NCBI GenBank assembly: GCA_001819605.1
Contig: MHNE01000015.1
Span: forward strand, 1-38,417
Source of the DNA: Candidatus Portnoybacteria bacterium RIFCSPLOWO2_01_FULL_43_11
GTDB lineage: Bacteria > Patescibacteriota > Minisyncoccia > Portnoybacterales > UBA2143
Length of the DNA: 38,417 nucleotides
Direction: 5' to 3'
Part shown: piece by piece, positions 19,332 through 37,496 of the stretch
Layout: every line of letters begins with the position of its first letter
Numbering within the stretch: the first letter of the stretch is position 1
The notes under the pieces: model-generated
Told to the model about the DNA's origin: nothing
Databases searched by the model: none
The model's input: the letters and a program-made list of their open reading frames with translations, nothing else
Translations under genes and position numbers: made by a program

Positions 19332-19514
19332 AGGATAGCTACTTACATTTTGCGAAATTGTGAAGTTTTGGAAACAGATAAACGAGTGGAGTCAGAAGGG
19401 GAGCCCGATGGAGGCCGCCTGAAAGGCGGCCGACATTGGAGGGGCATCCCCCTGACGGAACAAGTATTATCTGTCCAAAACGAAAGTATGAAGTAAAATG
19501 TAAGTAGCTATCCT
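19332..19514 (+). repeat. 183-nt palindromic element with perfect 20-bp terminal inverted repeats, overlapping the thpR stop
   Basis: AGGATAGCTACTTACATTTT (19332-19351) / AAAATGTAAGTAGCTATCCT (19495-19514). Inner stems: GTTTTGGA/TCCAAAAC, ACAGATAA/TTATCTGT, GTCAG/CTGAC, GGGGA/TCCCC. Apex GGCCGCC-TGAAA-GGCGGCC. Confidence 0.9.
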
Positions 19515-20876: not shown

Positions 20877-21383
20877 ATGATTATCCCCATCCAAACTAAT
20901 CCTAATAATCCCATTTTACGGCAAAAAGCTAAAGAAGTCAAGGAAATTACCGCTGAAATTAAGCGGCTGATTTTAGATATGGAAGAAACCATGGAGAAAG
21001 CGGCCGGAGTCGGGCTGGCCGCGCCTCAAATTGGCCAATCGCTTCGGGTGCTCGTCGCCAAATCAAATGATGAACCCCGCACCTTTCGCGGACAAAGTAT
21101 TTTTGCGCGAAAACGCGGCCCGCAAAAGGTGCGGGGTGAAATCATCGCTCTGATTAATCCGGAAATTAAAAAATTTTCTCGGAAAAAAGTCGTGATGGAA
21201 GAAGGGTGTTTAAGCTTGCCTAAACAATTCTCTCTTATAGAGCGACCGGCTAAAATTAAAGTAAAAGGATTAACTGAAGAAGGCGAGAAAATTAAAATTA
21301 AAATAAACGGACTCTTAGCGCGGATTATCCAACACGAAATTGACCATTTGGACGGGATTTTAATTATAGATAGAATCAAATGA
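20877..21383 (+). CDS. def: Peptide deformylase
   Basis: GVGLAAPQIG, EGCLS, QHEIDHLDG. Confidence 0.98.
   Translation: MIIPIQTNPNNPILRQKAKEVKEITAEIKRLILDMEETMEKAAGVGLAAPQIGQSLRVLVAKSNDEPRTFRGQSIFARKRGPQKVRGEIIALINPEIKKFSRKKVVMEEGCLSLPKQFSLIERPAKIKVKGLTEEGEKIKIKINGLLARIIQHEIDHLDGILIIDRIK
21074..21137. repeat. Palindromic element inside def
   Basis: Perfect 13-bp inverted repeat ACCCCGCACCTTT / AAAGGTGCGGGGT, extended by GCGG/CCGC; encodes PRTFRGQSIFARKRGPQKVRG. Confidence 0.85.
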
Positions 21384-22342
21384 AAAAATTAAAAATTATA
21401 TTTATGGGCACCCCGGATTTTGCCGCGCCTGCTCTTAAGCAATTAGTCAGTAATAATTATGAAATTTCAGCGGTGATTACCGCGCCGGACAAACCGATCG
21501 GCAGAAAACAAGAAGTCACTCCCCCGCCCATTAAAAAACTGGCTCTTCAATATAAAATACCAGTTCTTCAGCCAGAAAAAATCTTAAACTCGTCTTGGCC
21601 GAAGCCAGATCTCAAATCTCAAATCTTAAATCTTAATCCTGATTTAATCGTGGTTTCCGCTTATGGAAAAATTATTCCAAAAGAAATTTTGGACATCCCC
21701 CAATACGGCTCTTTAAATATCCACCCTTCGCTTCTGCCTAAATATCGCGGCCCCTCGCCTATTCAATTCGCTATTTTAAACGGCGAAAAAATAACCGGCG
21801 CGACCATTATGCTCATGGACGAAAAAATGGATCACGGCCCGATTCTTGCTCAAGAAAAAATAGAAATTCCGTCAGACGAAACCAGCCAAACGCTTCATGA
21901 TAAATTAGCTCAATTAGGAGCTGATTTACTAATCAAAACTATTCCTCAATATGTTCAAGGCGAAATCAAACCAAAGCCGCAAGATGAAAAAAATGCCAGC
22001 TATACTAAAATATTAACCAGAGAAGACGGAAAAATTGACTGGCGAAAAAGCGCTGAAAGCATTGAACGGCAAATCAGGGCTTTTACTCCCTGGCCCGGGG
22101 CCTGGACCATTGACGGAAAAAGATTAAAAATCCTTAAGGCGAAAGTGGTGGATAAAAAAGACGGATTGACTTTTAAAACCAAAAGGGGTTATTTACTTTT
22201 AGAAATGGTCCAGCCCGAAGGCAAAAAAACAATGAGCGGCGAGGAATTCATAAGAGGTTATGGGCGAGGAAATATGCCCTTGAGCGACATAGAATTGCGA
22301 GCGGGCATGGTGCCGCCGAAGGCGGCGAGCGAGCAATTATAA
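21380..22342 (+). CDS. fmt: Methionyl-tRNA formyltransferase (C-terminus extended by a palindromic element)
   Basis: IFMGTPDFA, NIHPSLLPKYRGPSPIQ, MDHGPI, RAFTPWPGA, QPEGKK. Confidence 0.98.
   Translation: MKKLKIIFMGTPDFAAPALKQLVSNNYEISAVITAPDKPIGRKQEVTPPPIKKLALQYKIPVLQPEKILNSSWPKPDLKSQILNLNPDLIVVSAYGKIIPKEILDIPQYGSLNIHPSLLPKYRGPSPIQFAILNGEKITGATIMLMDEKMDHGPILAQEKIEIPSDETSQTLHDKLAQLGADLLIKTIPQYVQGEIKPKPQDEKNASYTKILTREDGKIDWRKSAESIERQIRAFTPWPGAWTIDGKRLKILKAKVVDKKDGLTFKTKRGYLLLEMVQPEGKKTMSGEEFIRGYGRGNMPLSDIELRAGMVPPKAASEQL
21579..21634 (+). repeat. Period-7 tract (AAATCTY) with embedded mini-hairpin inside fmt
   Basis: AAATCTT...TGGC-CGAA-GCCA, then AGATCTC AAATCTC AAATCTT AAATCTT (21607-21634). 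Confidence 0.75.
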
Positions 22343-22402
22343 CGAGCAAAAATTCTCGCTGGGAATTTTTGCGTTCGCTCAAGGGCATATTTCCTCGCCC
22401 AT
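22260..22402 (+). mobile_element. 143-bp MITE-like element with perfect 28-bp terminal inverted repeats
   Basis: ATGGGCGAGGAAATATGCCCTTGAGCGA (22260-22287) and its exact reverse complement (22375-22402). Internal hairpins GCCGCC-GAA-GGCGGC and GCAAAAATTC/GAATTTTTGC. Mobility is inferred. Confidence 0.75.
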
Positions 22403-28027: not shown

Positions 28028-28118
28028 AATTTTTAATTTCTAATTTTTAATTTATAAACTGTTTGAAAATTGGGTTATTGAAAATTTAATAGAAATTGAT
28101 AATTGAAAATTGAAAATT
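28028..28118. repeat. Inverted period-7 arrays filling the rpoC-ftsK spacer
   Basis: AATTTTT AATTTCT AATTTTT AATTTAT ... AGAAATT GATAATT GAAAATT GAAAATT. Confidence 0.75.
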
Positions 28119-31100
28119 ATTTGCGGAATCCCGTGCCAGCCGGAATCAGCTTTCCTATTATAACATTCTCCTTTAGTCCTTTCAATTTATCAATTTTTCC
28201 CTGAACAGCCGCGTCAATCAAAACTCTGGCCGTCTCCTGAAAAGAAGCGGCGGAAAGAAAACTGTCAGTACTTAAAGAAACTTTAGTAATACCCAAAAGC
28301 AAAGATTGAGCTTCGGCTGGTTTTAATCCCTTATTTTTGGCCCGGGCGTTTTCTTCCTGCAGACTGGCTTGTTCAACTACCTGTCCGGCTAGGAAATTTG
28401 TCTGACCCGGATCTATAATCAGGGCCCGCGAAAACATTTGCCGGATAATTATTTCTATGTGTTTATCGTTAATTTTTTCACCGGCAATGGCGTAAATAGA
28501 CTGAACGCCCTTGACAATATACCTCTGAACCGCTTCTTTCCCCGCTAATCTATATAAGTCCTTTAAATCAACATGGCCCTCGTTTAACTGCTGTCCCTTA
28601 GTTATTAAATCGCCTTTACTAATCCATGTTCCTGTATTCGTAGGCACAACATATTCTTTAATTTCTTCTTTCTTTTCTTTAAGTTTTTTAGAATTTTGGA
28701 TTTTAGATTTAGAATTTGTTTCGGATTTCGGATTTGGAATTTGGAATTTTATCTTAATTATCTTCTGATTTTCTTTTTCAAAAACATCTATCACCTGACC
28801 GTCAACTTCAGAAATAATAGCTTTGCCCTTTGGGGATCTGGCCTCAAAAATTTCGTCTACTCTGGGCAAACCTTGAGTAATATCCTGTCCGCCGGCCACG
28901 CCGCCGGTATGAAAAGTCCGAAGCGTTAATTGAGTGCCGGGTTCGCCAATGGCTTGGGCAGTAACAATACCCACTGCCTCGCCCAAATTAACCAATTGAT
29001 TGCGCCCCAAATCATAGCCATAGCATTTCTGGCAAACCCCGTTTATGGCTTTACAGGTAATGACTGATCTGACTTTAATCTTATCAAGACCGGCCTCCTC
29101 TATTTTATGAGCTATTTCTTTATCAACTAGTTGTCCGACTTTTATTTCTATTTCAGACCCGGGTATCTGGATTTTCTCAAGAATAACTCTCCCAATCACC
29201 CTCTCGGCTAAACTATGATTAAACTCTTCTTCATCTTCTTTGTAAATATAAATACCTTCTCTATCTCCGCAGTCATTTTCCCTGATTACGATATCTTGAG
29301 TAACATCAACCAACCGCCTGGTTAAATAACCAGCCGTGGCTGTTCTAAGAGCCGTATCAGCCAGTCCTTTTCTGCCTCCGTGAGTGGCGATAAAATATTC
29401 CAAAACGTCAAACCCTTCTTTATAAGAACTTCTGACCGGCAATTCAATGGTTTCGCCTGAAGGATTAACCACTAATCCTTTCATTCCCATCATTTGCGCG
29501 GTCTGTCCCCATGAACCGCGCGAACCGGAATCAATCATCATATAAACCGGGTTGGCCGGACTTAAAGATTGAGAAACCTGCTTAGCCATCTTTTCCGTTA
29601 CTCTTGACCAAACCTCAATTACCCGTCCTTTTCGCTCTGTATCGGTTAAGAGTCCGTCAAGATACTGGCTCTGAATAGTTTCAACTTCTTTATCCGCTTC
29701 TTTTAACCATTCTTTCTTTTGATGAGGCACCTCTAAATCATCCATTCCCCAACTAATGCCTGACACGGCGGCGTACTTAAATCCCATTCTTTTTATCTTA
29801 TCCAAAATTACCGCGGTTTTCTTTAAACCGCATTTATCAATTAATTCGCTTATGAGCTTGCGAAGCTCCCGCTGATTCATAATCCTGTTAATAAACCCGA
29901 CTTCTTCAGGCAGGTATTCGTTAAAAATCATCCGGCCCACGGAAGTTTCTAAAAGATTTCCGTCTAACCTGACCTTTATTTTCGCCTTTAAATCCACCTC
30001 CCCGAAATGCTTAGTCAAAAGAGCTTCTTCAACTGAACCAAAAATTTTTCCCTCTCCTTTTAAACCTTCTCCCATGCTAGTGAGCCAATAACATCCAAGA
30101 ACCACATCTTGAGTAGGGATGGCCACCGGATCGCCGGCTGCCGGCTTTAAAAGATTTTTTGAAGAAAGCATAATTTCCCTTGCTTCTTCTTGGGCTTTTT
30201 CAGTTAAAGGTAAATGAACGGCCATTTGGTCTCCGTCAAAATCAGCGTTAAAAGCCCGGCAAACCATTGGATGAACCTGAATGGCGTTTCCTTCAATCAG
30301 CTTTGGCTGGAAGGCCTGAATGCCCAAACGATGCAAAGTGGGAGCCCTATTTAAAAGAACATAACGATCCTTGATAACTTCTTCCAAAACGCTCCAAATA
30401 TCGTCTGATTCCTGATCAATCAAACGGCCGGCGCCGCGGATATTATGAACCAATCCCCTTTCAACTAATTTGTTAATGACAAAAGGCTTAAAAAGCTCCA
30501 AGGCCATATATTTGGGCAGACCGCACTCATGAAGCTTTAATTCCGGACCCACGACAATTACGGAGCGGCCGGAATAATCAACCCGTTTTCCTAAAAGATT
30601 CTGTCTGAACCGGCCTTGCTTGCCTTTGAGCATATCAGCCAAGGAACGGAGAACCCGTTTTTGGCCGGTCGTAGCCGACACGGCTGACTGGCCGCGCCGG
30701 GCCGTATTGTCAATTAAAGCGTCAACCGCTTCCTGAAGCATTCTTTTTTCGTTTCGGCAGATAACTTCCGGCGCCTTTAATTCCAATAAATGCTTTAAAC
30801 GATTGTTTCTGTTAATTACCCGGCGGTATAAATCATTAACGTCAGAAGTGGCGTAGCGGCCGCCGTCTAACTGAACCATAGGTCTTAAATCAGGCGGCAA
30901 AACAGGCAAAGCCGTTAAAAACATCCATTCTGGTCTGATTTGAGCCCTAATCAATCCCTTAATCAGCCGTAATCGTTTTTGTATTTTTTTCTGAAGTACC
31001 GGACTGGCCTCTTTGACCCGCGCTGTAAGTTTTTTGGCCAGCTCCTCTAAATTCATTTCTTCAAAAATTTTCCGCAGGGTTTCGGCCCCGGTCCCGGCTT

Positions 31101-31731
31101 CAAAAACTTGAGCGTATTTCAAGCTTAAATCCCGATATCCCAATTCGGGAAGAATCTGAAAACGATGCAAATCCCTCAATTCCCTCACTGCTCTATCCCG
31201 CTGTTCTTTTAATTGATTTTTTAAATTTGAAGGTTTTGAGTTTTGAGATTTGAGTTTTTGTTTATATTCTCTCTCTATTTCCTCAATTGATTTTTTTCTC
31301 GCTTCTTCATCAATCTTAGTAATAATATAACCGGCAAAATAAATAATTTTTTCCAAATTTTGAACGGAAACGTCTAAAAGCAGGCCAGTTTTAGAAGGCA
31401 CGCCTCTTAAAAACCAGATATGAGAAACCGGCACGGCTAATTTAATGTGTCCCATCCTTTCCCGTCTGACAATGGCCCTTGTCACTTCAACGCCGCATTT
31501 GTCGCAAACTACTCCTTTATAGCGAATCCGACGGTATTTGCCGCAGTAGCATTCCCAGTCTTTTTCCGGACCGAAAATTTTCTCACAAAACAAACCGTCT
31601 TTTTCCGGTCTCTGCGTCCGATAATTAATAGTCTCCGGCTTTGTAACTTCGCCTTTTGACCAATCTAAAATCTCATCCGGCGAAGCCACTCTTAAAACAA
31701 TCGATTCAAAATCTGAAACTTTAGTGCTCAT
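28117..31731 (-). CDS. rpoC: RNA polymerase beta' subunit
   Basis: KPETINYRT, Zn ribbon CYCGKY...[40 protein letters not shown]. Confidence 0.99.
28690..28749 (-). repeat. Eight 7-mers (60 nt, in frame) inside rpoC
   Basis: Coding strand: AAATTCC AAATTCC AAATCCG AAATCCG AAAC AAATTCT AAATCTA AAATCCA AAATTCT = [20 protein letters not shown]. Confidence 0.85.
31214..31258 (-). repeat. Second period-7 tract inside rpoC
   Basis: Coding strand: AAAACTC AAATCTC AAAACTC AAAACC...; encodes [14 protein letters not shown]. Confidence 0.65.
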
Positions 31732-31734
31732 AAT

Positions 31735-34700
31735 TTATTGCTCCCTTTTTAATCCCTTTAATTCCACATTCAGCCCCAGCGCTTTTAATTCGCTTATTAA
31801 AACATTAAACGAGGCCGGCACATTAGGGGCTTGAATCGGCTTGCCGCGAATAATGGCGTCATAGACATTAGCCCGACCCAAAACATCATCCGACTTAATT
31901 GTCAACATCTCCTGCAAGGTATAAGCCGCTCCATAACCCTCCAGGGCCCAGACTTCCATTTCGCCGAAACGTTGACCGCCGAATTGAGCTTTGCCGCCCA
32001 AGGGCTGCTGGGTAATCAGAGAATAAGGACCCACTGAACGCATATGGATTTTATCCTCAACTAAGTGAAGCAGTTTCATAATATAGATGTAACCGACCGT
32101 CACCGGCTGATCAAACGGCTCGCCGCTTCGGCCGTCGTATAAAATAACCTTGCCGTTTTCCGGCAATCCGGCTTTTCTTAATTGATCCTTAATGTCTTTT
32201 TCTTTAATCCCTGAAAGAGCCGGACTCAAAGCCGGCTGACCGAGATGTTTAGCGGCCCAGCCCAAATGGGTTTCTAAAATCTGCCCGATATTCATCCGTG
32301 AAGCCACGCCTAATGGATTAAGAATAATTTCTATCGGCGTCCCGTCGGCTAAGTAAGGCATCTCCTCTTCGGGTAAAACTTTGGCAATGACGCCTTTGTT
32401 GCCGTGGCGGCCGGCTAATTTGTCGCCCACCGCCACTTTGCGCAGCTGCGCCACTTCCACCTGAATGCTTTTAATTACGCCGGCCTGCAGTTTATCTCCC
32501 CGGTCGCGGGAAAAAATCTGGATGTTAACCACCCGGCCCCGCTTGCCGTGAGGCAGACGCAAAGAAGTATCTTTGACATCGCGGGCTTTCTCTCCAAAAA
32601 TAGCCCTTAATAATCTTTCTTCGGCCGTTAAATCCGTTTCGCCCTTAGGCGAAATTTTACCGACCAAAATATCATTGGGTCTTACCTCTGCCCCGATTCG
32701 GACAATTCCCTCTTCGTCCAAATCTTTTAATCTTTCTTCGCCAACATTAGGAATATCCGGAGTGGTGATTTCCGGACCCAGTTTTGTTTCCCGAACATCG
32801 CAGGTAAAGCTTTCAATGTGAATGGAAGTATAACGATCGTCTCTGACTAATTTCTCGGAAAGAATAATCGCGTCTTCAAAATTATTTCCCCGCCACGACA
32901 TAAAAGCCACCAAAACATTCTGGCCCAAAGCCAGTTTGCCGTGATCCGTGGCCGCCCCGTCGGCTAAAATGTCTCCCTTTTTTATTTTTTGTCCCTTTTT
33001 TACTATAGGATGCTGATTAATGCATGTGTATTGATTGGTCCGGCTAAAAGAATGGAAAAGATATTTTTTGGATTTCTTGTCAGTTTTTAGAATTACCTGA
33101 TCAGCGTCCACTTCTTCCACAAACCCGTCTTCTTCCGCGATAATTAACTGGCCTGAATCGCGAGCCGCTTTTTCTTCTATGCCCGTACCCACCAAAGGCG
33201 CTTCCGGATTAATACAGGCCACGGCCTGACGCTGCATATTTGAGCCCATTAGAGCCCGGTTCGCGTCATCGTGCTCCAAAAAGGGAATCAAAGAAGTGGC
33301 CACGCTGATGCATTGCTGGGGCGAAATATCTATGAAATGAACTTTAGAACGTTCAATAAGACCCGGCTGTCCTTGAATACGGGCTTCTACTCTTCTGTCT
33401 AAAAACTCGCCCTTCTTACTTAACTTTATTCCAGCATGAGCAATATTGTATTTTCCCTCTTCCCAGCCATCAAGATAAACAATCTCGTCTGTTATCCGCC
33501 AATTTTTTACTTTTCTATAAGGCGTCTCAATGAAACCATGTTCGTTCAACCGGGCATAAGTGGCTAAATGACCGACCAAACCGATATTCGGACCTTCCGG
33601 AGTTTCAATGGGACAAATCCGGCCGTAATAACTGGAATGCACATCCCTTACCTCAAAACCGGCCCGCTCTTTGGTGAGGCCGCCCGGCCCCATGGCTGAC
33701 AAACGGCGCTTATGCTCCAGTTCAGCCAAAGGATTAATTTGATCCATAAACTGGGACAATTGAGAAGAAGTAAAGAATTCCTTAATTGAAGCGATAAAAG
33801 GCCTGGCGTTAATCAACTGCCCGGGAGTTAAACCGTATATCTCCAAGGTAGACATCTTGTCGCGGATAATTCTTTCAGTCCTCGTCAAGCCGACCCTTAA
33901 CTTATTCTGAAGCAATTCGCCCAATGTCCTCACCCGGCGATTGCCCAAATGGTCAATATCGTCCGGTTTAGAATTGGGCGTATTATTCAGTCTGATAATT
34001 TCTTTAATAACGGCGATAATGTCTTCCAAATGTAAAATACGGTCTTCTTTGGTAATTTCCTTTTTTCCGCCGGACGCGCCTTTTATATCCTCTAATCTTT
34101 GATTAAACTTCCACCTGCCTACTTCTTTTAAATCATATCTTTCAAAACTAAACATGGCGGCAATAAAAGAACGGGCATTGTCCACTGTGGCCAAATCGCC
34201 CGGCCTGATTCTTTTGTAAACTTCAATAAAACCCTCGTCAGCGCTCTTTGACGAATCTTTAGCCAGAGTGGCTTCTATATAATCCGTTTCGCCTTTATTG
34301 ATATCGCTGAAAATATTTTTAATGTCCTCATTAGTTAATTTGTCATCCTGAGGGCGAAGCCCGAAGGATCCCGTAGATTTAGTATTTTTGCCGCGGGATT
34401 CTTCGCCCGCTGGCTGGCGGGCTTCAGAATGACGAAGTTTTTCTAAGGCCGCAAAAACTCTCAATAAAGCCGTGGCCGGGGCCTTTCTTTTCCGGTCAAT
34501 CTTTACGCCAATGGCGCCGTCTAAATCCGTTTCAAATTCCAGCCAGGCGCCGCGGTTGGGAATGACTTTTGCCCCGAACAATTGCCGGCCGCGGACAAAT
34601 TGAGAAGTAAAAAAAACCCCGAACGACCGAATCAATTGAGAAATGACCACTCTTTCCACGCCGTTAACGATAAAAGTGCCTCGTTTGGTCATTATGGGAA

Positions 34701-34995
34701 ATTCGCCCAAATAAATCTCCTGCTCTTTGACTTCTTTTGTTTTTTTATTTATTAACTTCAAACGGCAACGCAAAGAAGCCTCATAAGAAGCGTTATGGGC
34801 TTTAGCTCCAACTTCATCATATTTTGGCTCGTCTAAATGATAATCTAAAAAATAAAGCTCTAAGTCTTTGCCGCTCCAGTCTCTGATTGGACTTATCTCG
34901 TCAAAAAGCTCTCTTAATCCCTTCTCTAAAAACCACTTATATGAATGGAGTTGTGTTTCAATTAAATTAGGGAGCCGGAAACCTCCTTTGAGCAT
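31735..34995 (-). CDS. rpoB: RNA polymerase beta subunit
   Basis: [65 protein letters not shown]. Confidence 0.99.
34341..34434. repeat. Inverted pair of (C/T)GTC-tagged REP-like units in frame inside rpoB
   Basis: TGTCATCCTGA-GGGC-GAA-GCCC-GAAGGATCCCG ... CGGGATTCTTC-GCCCGC..GCGGGC-TTCAGAATGACG; encodes [31 protein letters not shown]. Confidence 0.9.
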
Positions 34996-35090: not shown

Positions 35091-37496
35091 CTACAAAGCG
35101 GGCCGACTAAGTTCGTTAATCTTTGCCTCAACTTCCGCGTTGCCCGGCGCAAGCTGATTAACAATCTGAAACTGAATTAAAGCTTCCTGATTTCTTCCTT
35201 TCATTTGATAAGACGCTCCTAATCCGTATCGGGCGTTAGCGTGCTGGGGCGTTACAATAACTGATTGTTCAAACAATTCAATGGCCCTGTCAAAATTCTT
35301 CAAGTTAAAATGCATCCGACCCATCTGAAAATAAATTTCCGTGGCCGCTCCGGCTAAGGCGGATCCCCTTTTAAAACTAATGCCCTTTAAACGATCCAAA
35401 GCTCCTTCCAACCGCTTAGCCGCTTCTTCCAAATTGCCTTTTCTTTCATAAACCATGGCTAATTGAATATGAGCGTCCAGGTAATTTGGTTTTAAGTCAA
35501 CCGCTCTCTGGCATTGATTTAAAATCTCGTTACTGATTTCCTGTTCCGTCATCAGATTAAGCCGACAGAGTTCTCTGTAGAAAAACGGGTTAGTTGGTTC
35601 CAGTTCTAAAGCCCGCTTAAATGAATCAACGGCAAAGGGCGAAATCCCGCTGACTAAATTACTTAAATCACGATAGATACCGCCTAAGTTCTCCCAGGTC
35701 ATAACTAATTTTGGACTTATTTCCGTCGCTTGTCTGGCTTGGTCAATGGCGCCGGCCGCGTAATTTTGTAAAAGCTGAATATCCCGCCCATCTTCCGGCT
35801 TTTGAACCTCTCTCCAGGCCATAACCAAATAAACTTGGGATAAGCTAAAACGATAATTAACCCGATATTTATTAAGATTAACCGCTTTTTCAAAATTAGG
35901 GAGCTTATTGTCTATATCGCTTTGATTCAAGCCCTTAAGATAATAAACGTCAGCCGCGTAAAATCTGGCGCTTAAATAAAATAATCCCAAAACAGCAAAA
36001 ACAAGAACAAGAAATATGGTGCCTAAAACTAAACCAAATTCCGGCCATTTTTTAAACGAGAAACTTATCTTTGAACGAGGAATACCAAGATTATCTCGCC
36101 AAGCCACGATACCCAAACCGGTAAACAGCCAAAAAGAAAATGATAAAACAGTATTTTCCAAGTAAATAAATTGGGCGATAAAAAAAGAAAGCCAGGGGAA
36201 AAAAATTGGTAAAATAACTGCTCCCGCCGTCATCCTGAGCGAAGCGAAAGATTCCGTATTAGAGCCATTTTCTTCGGAATTCTCCGGTAAAACTCCAGAA
36301 TGACGTTGTTTCCTTAAAAACATACCCATCACAAATAAAAACATTACGACAACTGCCAAATAACTTAAAATTCCCAATATGCCAATGGCGCTGACCAGTT
36401 CCATTAAATAACTTTGTCCTTTGTCAAACCTGATATTCCAAAATCTGTTATCGTTAAATTCCTCCTGTTTGAATTTAGAAAAGCCGTATAAGAAAGTGTC
36501 CGGCCCGGAGCCCAAAACCGGATAATTTTTAACAACCTCTTCCGTAATAAAGCCGGCGGTCTTGTAATCCAAAATAACTTCTTGAGGCAAGGGGTTATTT
36601 GTAAAAATAGAAGTCCCTTGTTTTGCTTTTAATACAACTCCGAAAAATCCGGCGGCTGAAATAACAATCAGAACAATCGGCAAAAGCAGAACATTAACTC
36701 GCTCCCTAAACAGCCGCGTCCAAAATGACGCGAGCAAAAGAATCAGCATCGTTATTCCCAAAACAACCCAAGCGGCCCGGAAATCAATCAGGAGTAATAA
36801 AATTATAGCGGCCAATAGAATTAAGTAATGAGTAATAAGTAACGGATAATGAGTAATTGATTCTTTATTCTTAATTCCGATTAAGACTCTTCCTACAACC
36901 AATCCAATCACAGCCGCTAAAAAAATCGCCAATCCCTCCAAACTTCCGGTCATCGGATTAAATGTTTTTAAACTCATTAAGCCCGGCAATCGCTCCCCTA
37001 ACCAGGGAATTTTCGTCCAAATTCCCAAAATAGAAAAATAAGCCGCGATAATAACCAAAAAACTTGAAGCTAAAAACCAATTCAATAAAGAATAAACATT
37101 ACTCTTTATTCTCCGTTCTTTATTCAGTGACGCATTATTAACCACCACAAAATACATTAAGAGTATTGTTAAAAATCCGGCCGTTGCGCCGCTAAACCGG
37201 CCGTAAAACCCCAGCCAGGAAGAAATGCCGTCTACGGAAAAAACAGCGCTTAAAATTATCACGAGCATTAAAACTAAAATTGGAATATCCAAAGCCGTCC
37301 TCTGCCAAACTATTTTTTTCCGGACAATAACCATTTTAAAAAGCCAGACTAAAAAAACAAGTCCGACTAAGAAAAATAATAAATACTGCTTATTAAACTC
37401 ATAGGCCTCTAAAGTAAAAGGCAGCCAAAATAACGGCGCTAAAAAAACAAGCAGACAAATAGATGTTCTGATAATAAAATTGCTTAATTTTAACAT
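35091..37496 (-). CDS. Polytopic membrane protein, O-antigen ligase (Wzy_C)-like core with C-terminal TPR repeats
   Basis: About 12 TM segments, PVLGSGPDTF loop motif, TPR-type repeats (FKRALELEPTN, AVDLKPNYLDAHIQLA, NARYGLGASY). Confidence 0.8.
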   Translation of the reverse strand: MLKLSNFIIRTSICLLVFLAPLFWLPFTLEAYEFNKQYLLFFLVGLVFLVWLFKMVIVRKKIVWQRTALDIPILVLMLVIILSAVFSVDGISSWLGFYGRFSGATAGFLTILLMYFVVVNNASLNKERRIKSNVYSLLNWFLASSFLVIIAAYFSILGIWTKIPWLGERLPGLMSLKTFNPMTGSLEGLAIFLAAVIGLVVGRVLIGIKNKESITHYPLLITHYLILLAAIILLLLIDFRAAWVVLGITMLILLLASFWTRLFRERVNVLLLPIVLIVISAAGFFGVVLKAKQGTSIFTNNPLPQEVILDYKTAGFITEEVVKNYPVLGSGPDTFLYGFSKFKQEEFNDNRFWNIRFDKGQSYLMELVSAIGILGILSYLAVVVMFLFVMGMFLRKQRHSGVLPENSEENGSNTESFASLRMTAGAVILPIFFPWLSFFIAQFIYLENTVLSFSFWLFTGLGIVAWRDNLGIPRSKISFSFKKWPEFGLVLGTIFLVLVFAVLGLFYLSARFYAADVYYLKGLNQSDIDNKLPNFEKAVNLNKYRVNYRFSLSQVYLVMAWREVQKPEDGRDIQLLQNYAAGAIDQARQATEISPKLVMTWENLGGIYRDLSNLVSGISPFAVDSFKRALELEPTNPFFYRELCRLNLMTEQEISNEILNQCQRAVDLKPNYLDAHIQLAMVYERKGNLEEAAKRLEGALDRLKGISFKRGSALAGAATEIYFQMGRMHFNLKNFDRAIELFEQSVIVTPQHANARYGLGASYQMKGRNQEALIQFQIVNQLAPGNAEVEAKINELSRPAL
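36228..36305. repeat. CGTC-tagged REP-like element (78 nt = 26 codons) in frame inside the TPR gene
   Basis: CGTCATCCTGA-GC-GAA-GC-GAAAGATTCCG ... CCAGAATGACG; encodes RHSGVLPENSEENGSNTESFASLRMT. Same termini as the rpoB element. Confidence 0.88.
36824..36879. repeat. Period-7 tract inside the TPR gene
   Basis: AGTAATG AGTAATA AGTAACG GATAATG AGTAATT GATTCTT TATTCTT AATTCCG; encodes GIKNKESITHYPLLITHY. Confidence 0.75.

Follow-up and report, generated by a model that had tools for sequence, protein, structure and literature searches.

Why does the gene for the RNA polymerase beta subunit of an ultra-small groundwater bacterium carry a palindromic repeat in frame, and does the repeat become part of the protein? 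The locus lies on a contig of Candidatus Portnoybacteria bacterium RIFCSPLOWO2_01_FULL_43_11 (MHNE01000015.1; 38,417 nucleotides (nt), the whole of which was analysed and is called here the window), contig C15 of a genome, G000, of 702,366 bp in 33 contigs with 38.3% G+C and 83.5% completeness, from groundwater-type metagenomes. Its rpoB gene (31735..34995, minus strand; 1086 aa), identified from its open reading frame (ORF), translation and phmmer matches, the first 400 aa of the product matching RNA polymerase beta chains in the PDB at E 2e-94, is followed by rpoC (28117..31731). A first reading of the DNA without database searches, hereafter the sequence-only reading, had placed at 34341–34434 a palindrome resembling the repetitive extragenic palindromes (REPs), in which two inverted units add some 31 codons before the protein segment KLTNEDI. 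The location is right but the interval is one base too wide: sequence and translation place the insert at 34342..34434 (minus strand), where both units are indeed present and add exactly 31 codons, corresponding to RpoB residues 188–218. These 93 nt comprise a C followed by a 92-nt element GTCAT...ATGAC, so that the coding strand runs CGT CAT ... GAT GAC, directly before KLTNEDI; they are free of stop codons and leave the host frame intact on both sides.

We think it probable that this insert is a non-autonomous palindromic element of the REP type, carried in frame in a beta-lobe surface linker of RpoB as a passenger that is neutral or nearly so. An inverted doublet of [C/T]GTC-tagged hairpins, of the kind known as CGTC REPs and, among the Rickettsia palindromic elements (RPEs), as RPE-4/6/7, would have landed in that linker. 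Because the copy is stop-free, is a multiple of three nucleotides long in the frame of its host and lies at a site that tolerates added residues, it would simply be transcribed and translated with rpoB, giving a 31-residue hydrophilic and probably disordered loop, and the element would then persist without appreciable cost or benefit.

The anatomy of the element is that of two hairpin units arranged as an inverted doublet, both delimited from the sequence and from pattern matches. Unit 1, the first on the coding strand (34397..34434, minus strand), has the layout CGTC-ATTCT-GA-[GCCCGC CAGCCA GCGGGC]-GA-AGAAT-CCCGCGG and is followed by a 15-nt A/T-rich spacer; it thus consists of a CGTC tag, the stem ATTCT/AGAAT, a tandem GA/AG and the inner hairpin GCCCGC-CAGCCA-GCGGGC, the reverse complement of 34397–34433 being GTCATTCTGAAGCCCGCCAGCCAGCGGGCGAAGAATC. 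Unit 2, in inverted orientation (34342..34370, plus strand), reads GTCATCCTGAGGGCGAAGCCCGAAGGATC on the plus strand and has the layout TGTC-ATCCT-GA-[GGGC GAA GCCC]-GA-AGGAT-CCCGTAG, with a TGTC tag whose T is position 34341, the stem ATCCT/AGGAT, a tandem GA/AG and the mini-hairpin GGGC-GAA-GCCC. The central part (34362..34405), defined by repeat search and folding, contains the tails CCCGTAG and CCGCGG (reverse complement) and the A/T-rich spacer at 34377–34391; its arms 34362–34373 and 34394–34405 are able to pair over 12 nt with 92% complementarity. Both units follow the general formula [C/T]GTC-ATYCT-GA-[mini-hairpin]-GA-AGRAT-CCC. The RNA fold of 34330–34445 reaches −45 kcal/mol against −25.4 ± 3.4 for shuffled sequences (z −5.82; 0 of 200 shuffles as good). 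In energy per 100-nt stretch, the element is the second strongest hairpin region of the window. Rfam gave no match on the element and, elsewhere in the window, four unrelated sub-threshold matches, all with E of at least 3.4. The differing inner hairpins and the compensatory stems (ATCCT..AGGAT against ATTCT..AGAAT) that had been pointed out at the outset are real. The Y/R difference between the units leaves each unit's own stem Watson–Crick paired and introduces G.U into the long-range outer stem, so the covariation is within the units; it recurs across the family, where 182 of 185 units listed keep Watson–Crick pairing at this position, in line with the original suggestion that structure is kept while sequence varies.

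The element belongs to a dispersed family. Its terminal motif GTCATYCTGARG, with at most one mismatch, occurs four times in the window against 0.25 expected, a number reached by 0 of 100 shuffles; these motif matches also mark a second doublet (36229..36304, minus strand), in frame in the gene of an 801-aa membrane protein (35091..37496) with TPR repeats by Pfam, where it encodes RHSGVLPENSEENGSNTESFASLRMT. The genome as a whole holds about 12 loci of this type, which we call type A (8 doublets and 4 halves), in which the tail CCC or CTC continues with G(T/C)(A/G)G, as well as three doublets of a second subtype (GTCATTCCCGCGAAAGCGGGAATCCAG...) with the tail CCA. A selfish repeat origin rather than a local oddity, as the sequence-only reading had it, is thus borne out. 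In 7 of the 8 doublets an ATTCT unit, usually tagged CGTC, is paired with an ATCCT or ATCTT unit, usually tagged TGTC, so that the doublet is a fixed heterodimer and not two random units; the tags face outward in all eight. By eye, no target-site duplication is evident at the eight doublets, whose ends are inverted repeats and whose flanks are A/T-rich.

Pfam supports the genes that hold eight of the 12 type-A loci in frame. Besides rpoB and tatD these are a radical-SAM/UPF0004 methylthiotransferase-like gene, the genes for the TPR membrane protein, an RsmI-like methylase and a GAF histidine kinase, and cysS and secA; in cysS the copy separates the catalytic domain from the DALR domain, and in secA it stands between scaffold domain and SEC-C motif. 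Two further doublets are intergenic. Of the two remaining loci, both ambiguous, one is at the very N-terminal end of a GT2 frame and the other in an ORF of 183 aa without a family. A doublet can be read without stop codons in only one to three of its six frames, and the in-frame copies have therefore been through a filter. If the reading frame has to stay open for 60 aa or more to either side of a unit, 5 of 9 strict units in G000 qualify, compared with 20 of 185 in a wide sample (among the matches listed). This high share of coding copies probably reflects a small, gene-dense genome, about 87.5% of which by a crude estimate falls within ORFs of at least 100 aa, together with selection against disruptive insertions. 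The cysS element is confined to G000: the 81%-identical orthologue of G001, a genome of the same genus, has a shorter, different segment, and 23 other aligned rows lack it. G000 has two cysS-like genes that are 37% identical (G000:C18:3546-5012 and G000:C30:10650-12011), and the best matches of relatives to the element-bearing one are mostly just 37–47% identical.

Beyond this genome, 31 related genomes were scanned with the pattern GTCATYCTGAR-N4-30-GAAGRATC and, as a control, with the reversed pattern. Units were found in 21 of the 31 (0–126 units each) and the reversed pattern in none. The counts are 63 + 63 in G022, 22 + 21 in G008 and 6 + 3 in G000. The 126 units of G022, a genome of 1.1 Mb, include many identical doublets of about 101 nt (GTCATTCTGAGGGTGAAGCCCGAAGAATC ... 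GTCATTCTGAACGAAGTGAAGAATC) and look like a recent burst. A wider scan, with one genome per species, returned at least 120 stretches; these represent at least 27 named phyla, among them several candidate phyla and, in the Bacteroidota, the cultured Lacinutrix, Pedobacter and Flavobacterium. A Rickettsiales metagenome-assembled genome also matches the pattern. Among 185 units from at least 120 loci, the Y/R stem position is T-A in 94, C-G in 88 and C-A in 3, while the base before GTC is T in 135, C in 34, A in 10 and G in 6 of the units listed. Seven-nucleotide inner hairpins number 79 among the matches listed; their two pairs are Watson–Crick in 75 and 72, the first alternating between G-C (61) and A-T (14), and a GNA loop is present in 66. 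As described in excerpts of two papers, GCGNAGC forms a DNA mini-hairpin far stabler than its RNA counterpart (PMC13037366; PMC3201870). Given this difference in stability, the inner hairpins hint, without amounting to proof, that the units may act as single-stranded DNA hairpins during their spread.

Candidates for a mobilising enzyme were sought among Y1 transposases. PF01797 matches were present in 18 of the 31 genomes and in neither G000, where at 83.5% completeness absence is not proven, nor G022, which has the most units and is 91% complete. Thirteen RAYT-like genes inspected in relatives have HUH-type motifs and are mostly flanked by their own lineage-specific palindromes; GTCAT units are absent within 350 bp of these 13 genes, and the few seen in a wider set of 25 loci lie about 1 kb or more away. 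PF01797 occurs in 13 of 21 genomes with units and in 5 of 10 without, which in a comparison of related, non-independent genomes is no clear link, and on these two grounds RAYTs were rejected as the mobiliser. Between rpoB and rpoC, two relatives have a RAYT-like gene with an HUH motif (238 aa in G001:C33 and 228 aa in G005:C1) and with its own palindromes to either side; in G000 this interval holds no gene. The lack of a linked transposase matches the conclusion reached for CGTC REPs in 2013, as given in excerpts of PMC3733652.

Where in RpoB does the insert lie? The conserved blocks on either side align by phmmer to residues 24–213 and 339–434 of Escherichia coli beta and to residues 25–199 and 212–280 of Bacillus subtilis beta, so the insert falls in the gap that corresponds to E. 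coli 213–339. This gap we take to be the home of the lineage-specific insertion SI1 (beta-i4) of the beta lobe, and the expectation that the element sits in an insertion-tolerant region of beta agrees with the alignment to the 213/339 gap of E. coli and the 199/212 gap of B. subtilis. AlphaFold2, run on residues 1–440 with a 23-row alignment (mean predicted local distance difference test score (pLDDT) 73.7, predicted template modelling score 0.52), returned coil at residues 193–221, with ten-residue block means of 56, 43 and 55 over 191–220 and of 82–88 in the flanks. The prediction, which the sequence-only reading had recommended for deciding whether the insert is a surface loop, is thus of a low-confidence coil between confident flanks.

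For the history of the site, 24 of 30 rpoB loci from relatives were aligned, six fragments or second pieces (L017, L023, L025, L026, L027 and L029) being left out and one aligned locus (L024) not entering the tree. Outside the family of G000, f1, 9 of 9 rows have no residues at the site (8 rows of other families and a divergent second copy in G017), whereas all 14 tree rows of f1 have 6–36 extra residues. The gap of about 31 aa that the sequence-only reading expected in relatives is therefore found in other families and not within the same family. The divergent G017 gene, on another contig (C16) and 67% identical, groups outside the family and may be contamination of that bin. Within f1, a copy of the element in G010 is decayed but begins at exactly the codon boundary seen in G000 (CGTCGTTTTGAAG...CAGAATGAC), and half a copy in G003 has the same 3′ boundary; G001 has an unrelated AT-rich palindrome, and others have 6–19 unrelated extra residues. 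In the RpoB tree, computed with the insert columns removed, G000 and G001 split first from the other 12 f1 rows (SH-aLRT 99 and 100), so recognisable copies stand on both sides of the deepest split of the family.

Metagenomes extend this picture. Eighty metagenome relatives were kept, 55 with a match length of 282–288 nt (no insert) and 25 with 300–387 nt; 32 of them (the 25 long and 7 short) were aligned and the insert DNA of 12 was folded. One of the 12 is a decayed GTCAT-type copy (L211), one equals the G001 palindrome and five show nothing clear; strong unrelated palindromes, read in frame, occur in L217 and L223 (z −6.2 each), and simple repeats such as AAATCCC and CAAACAA, also read in frame, in L216, L221 and L222. 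One of these metagenome palindromes (the L217, L223/L225 set) resembles that flanking a RAYT-like gene in G029 (GAAGTCGGACTTC). From the decayed copies and unrelated palindromes in same-family relatives it follows that the site is an old, recurrent and permissive landing place and not the scene of one recent event. The insert peptide is not conserved among relatives; such conservation, in relatives that lack the DNA palindrome, had been named beforehand as a reason to abandon a repeat origin.

Several observations weigh against a neutral passenger of this known type. The rpoB copy is a nearly intact palindrome, although recognisable copies flank the deepest split of f1; since old neutral DNA should have decayed, this points to recent re-insertion or to maintenance of the copy. 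The low pLDDT at the insert may in part come from an alignment that is shallow and rich in gaps there, and the case for translation of the insert is made by its frame and its freedom from stop codons. With no PF01797 match in G000 or G022, a single-stranded DNA mechanism is left without its enzyme. Finally, the unit has a stem of 5 bp, G.A/A.G and a further 2–6 bp with mostly 3-nt loops, unlike the 8–9 bp stems and 4–5 nt loops of CGTC REPs, although the commonest unit has a stem of nine positions, against the published 8–9 bp, when the G.A pairs are counted.

A composite account would take up several of these points. The SI1-aligned gap of RpoB would be a recurrent landing pad in these ultra-small bacteria, where at least four unrelated palindromic or simple-repeat families have been made coding; the GTCAT unit, with its tandem G.A and its GNA triloop, would be a pan-bacterial mini-hairpin element of single-stranded DNA, present in at least 27 phyla and moved by machinery other than RAYT; and the near-perfect rpoB palindrome would speak for active maintenance, by selection on mRNA or DNA structure or by repeated conversion or re-insertion, and not for neutral persistence. 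Taken as a whole we consider this account unlikely.

We find it less plausible still that the element has been exapted, its hairpin (as mRNA or DNA) or its 31-residue loop being kept by selection as a translation pause, a processing signal in the rpoB–rpoC message or an SI1-like module of the beta lobe. Near-perfect pairing at a site occupied since early in the family would fit such a role, as would the retention of some insert by all f1 relatives and the coincidence with the site of the large E. coli insertion, yet those relatives have conserved neither peptide nor DNA, G001 having its unrelated palindrome, and in metagenome relatives the site is held by three or more further repeat types that are unrelated. 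The two outer-stem changes of G010, which give G.U pairs on the sense strand and count in favour of exaptation, are expected by chance about once in four times, and the same element is present in seven functionally unrelated genes.

It is very improbable that the element is an intervening sequence which RNA processing and religation, or translational bypass, keeps out of the protein. A very stable hairpin of −45 kcal/mol does lie inside a coding region, but all eight intragenic copies are stop-free and keep the frame even though so few frames of a doublet are open, a filter that is needed only if the copies are translated, and the element matches nothing in Rfam. To our knowledge 93 nt is far below the size of any self-splicing intron and too small for any intein. 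The peptide is probably made and harmless.

An assembly artefact, in which a k-mer repeated many times over in the metagenome led to a chimeric join within rpoB, deserves equally little credence, but the locus gives some cause to consider it. The unit at 34342–34375 reaches summed contig depths of 1578–2784 in four metagenome runs, so it is heavily repeated in these communities, and contigs break there. The junction at 34433/34434, on the side of upstream rpoB, is crossed with 0 differences by independent contigs from four public groundwater or soil runs of four studies, one of which may be the source sample; these contigs reproduce 34341/34344–34557 or beyond, again with 0 differences. The other junction (34341/34342) is reached by a single contig of run X1 (34191–34368), which extends from downstream rpoB 27 bases deep into the element, short of the bridging criterion of 31 bases. 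Among the contigs of the metagenome runs, none spans the entire element and none skips it; the lack of listed contigs over 34240–34307 in runs X2, X3 and X5 is a gap in cover and not evidence. Contig joints such as 33965 to 34525 were rejected as deletions, having short sides and deriving from conserved rpoB parts of other organisms; none removes the element exactly. Misassembly, against which the sequence-only reading had cautioned, is thus opposed by the agreement of the independent contigs, with the reservation of the one shallow junction, as well as by an insert of exactly 31 stop-free codons through which the rpoB frame continues and by copies at the same codon boundary in other genomes. 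Least probable of all is a local origin, with the palindrome formed at a fragile site through template switching or hairpin-primed repair. That relatives have several unrelated palindromes and simple repeats here could mean that the site is prone to generating them, but both units match a family that recurs elsewhere in G000, in 21 of the 31 related genomes and across many phyla, the match extending to identical 29-mers (e.g. G029:C5:11093-11121).

The window holds other palindromes. A different family is found in frame in a 168-aa ORF (20877..21383), at 21061–21160 (ACCCCGCACCTTT...AAAGGTGCGGGGT; −45 kcal/mol over the 120-nt region 21051–21170); it is shared with a palindrome in the RF2 gene (G000:C2, about 21250–21335), which was rejected as a relative of the rpoB element for belonging to this different family. 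GC-rich palindromes in the intergenic gaps at 19371–19470 and 22301–22400 (−48 and −43.9 kcal/mol per 100 nt) rank among the five strongest folds of the window. The strong folds at 30611–30710 and 33661–33760 were rejected as elements, being ordinary conserved coding sequence.

The proposed REP-type passenger in rpoB bears on more than this locus. In-frame protein-coding palindromes were first presented as a peculiarity of Rickettsia, and the same outcome is met here in an unrelated lineage, whose genome is tiny and dense in genes, and in the core genes rpoB, secA and cysS. This favours the idea that REP-type elements are driven into permissive protein loops where a genome is small and has little spacer DNA. 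Alignments should mask this segment, which is of repeat origin and ranges from 0 to about 36 residues, since rpoB is a common marker for phylogeny and binning. The wide spread of the unit, its strict hairpin covariation and the lack of a linked transposase restate the 2013 question in testable form, and G022, with its 63 + 63 units and many identical doublets, is the kind of genome in which to seek the mobilising enzyme. A literature search for the exact sequence of a 25-nt unit found no paper, and among the papers listed by searches on Rickettsia-type palindromic elements in the ultra-small-bacteria group and on in-frame palindromes in the Candidate Phyla Radiation, none described such a case; the supplements of PMC3733652, which cover intragenic REPs and their host genes, might hold related ones, while its main text mentions neither rpoB nor RNA polymerase.

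How, then, does the element compare with known systems? CGTC REPs, as the available parts of the original description set them out (Di Nocera, De Gregorio and Rocco, 2013; PMC3733652), have an unpaired CGTC tag, often TGTC (or CCTC), a stem that starts A-T, T-A and a 3-nt tail with the consensus CCA. They fall into four families (CGTC-1 to CGTC-4) with stems of 8–9 bp and loops of 4–5 nt in five phyla; they occur mostly as inverted dimers, many of them heterodimers, their intragenic copies encode 20–30 residues and they have no dedicated transposase. The same source equates CGTC-1 and CGTC-4 of R. conorii with RPE-6 and RPE-4, and CGTC-1 of Neisseria with dRS3. Set against these four families by their description in the text rather than by consensus sequences, the rpoB copy is tagged CGTC-ATTCT on its coding strand and TGTC-ATCCT on the opposite one, and its stems start A-T, T-A (ATTCT/AGAAT and ATCCT/AGGAT). 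All loosely found G000 copies have this start; the search pattern of the collection scan already contained it, so it is not independent there. The tail is short and C-rich, CCC or CTC in type A against the consensus CCA, which the second G000 subtype has; 8 of the 12 type-A loci are inverted (hetero)dimers, there are intragenic copies and no repeat-flanked transposase gene was seen. The likeness to CGTC-tagged REPs that was proposed from the start thus fits in tag and stem layout, and the superfamily includes the in-frame RPE-4 and RPE-6 (PMC3733652, in part). The GTCAT motif extends in contrast to at least 27 named phyla, with several candidate phyla among its hosts.

Rickettsia palindromic elements provide the second comparison. 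RPE-4/6/7 have a terminal ATGAC in common, and at R. japonica orthologues insertions occur at the same sites with different or no typical RPEs, a pattern for which a hotspot and a common origin are discussed (excerpts of the R. japonica paper, PMC3767692). Likewise, the elements described here are short palindromes ending in ATGAC/GTCAT that are found, with the frame preserved, in the housekeeping genes of a small genome, and orthologues are occupied at the same sites by different or decayed elements. Rickettsia elements encode 20–50 hydrophilic residues at protein surfaces, to which the rpoB insert, predicted as a low-confidence coil between confident flanks, may be likened. The comparison, made by description and not with an RPE consensus sequence, also shows differences: an ultra-small groundwater host, rpoB as the target, the tandem G.A/A.G and a 3-nt GNA loop. 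Because its host is not a Rickettsia, the rpoB element is not an RPE by name.

With the REPIN–RAYT systems the family shares an inverted hairpin doublet as the repeated unit and the presence of RAYT-like genes in relatives, and the logic of a hairpin in single-stranded DNA is likely to be the same. Those systems, however, have GTAG heads and a single-copy Y1 transposase, whereas here the outer tag is [C/T]GTC, GTAG appears only in the inner tail of one unit (CCCGTAG), G000 has no PF01797 match and relatives' RAYT-like genes have palindromes of their own, of other kinds, at their flanks. E. coli SI1 occupies the same inter-block gap of RpoB, but SI1 is a folded domain of about 120 residues without a repeat-DNA signature, whereas the insert described here is a 31-residue loop derived from a mobile palindrome. 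The element is therefore of a known kind, a protein-coding palindrome of the REP/RPE type, for which both the host lineage and the target gene are new; the RpoB gap is colonised repeatedly by different repeats, and the unit is far more widespread than published.

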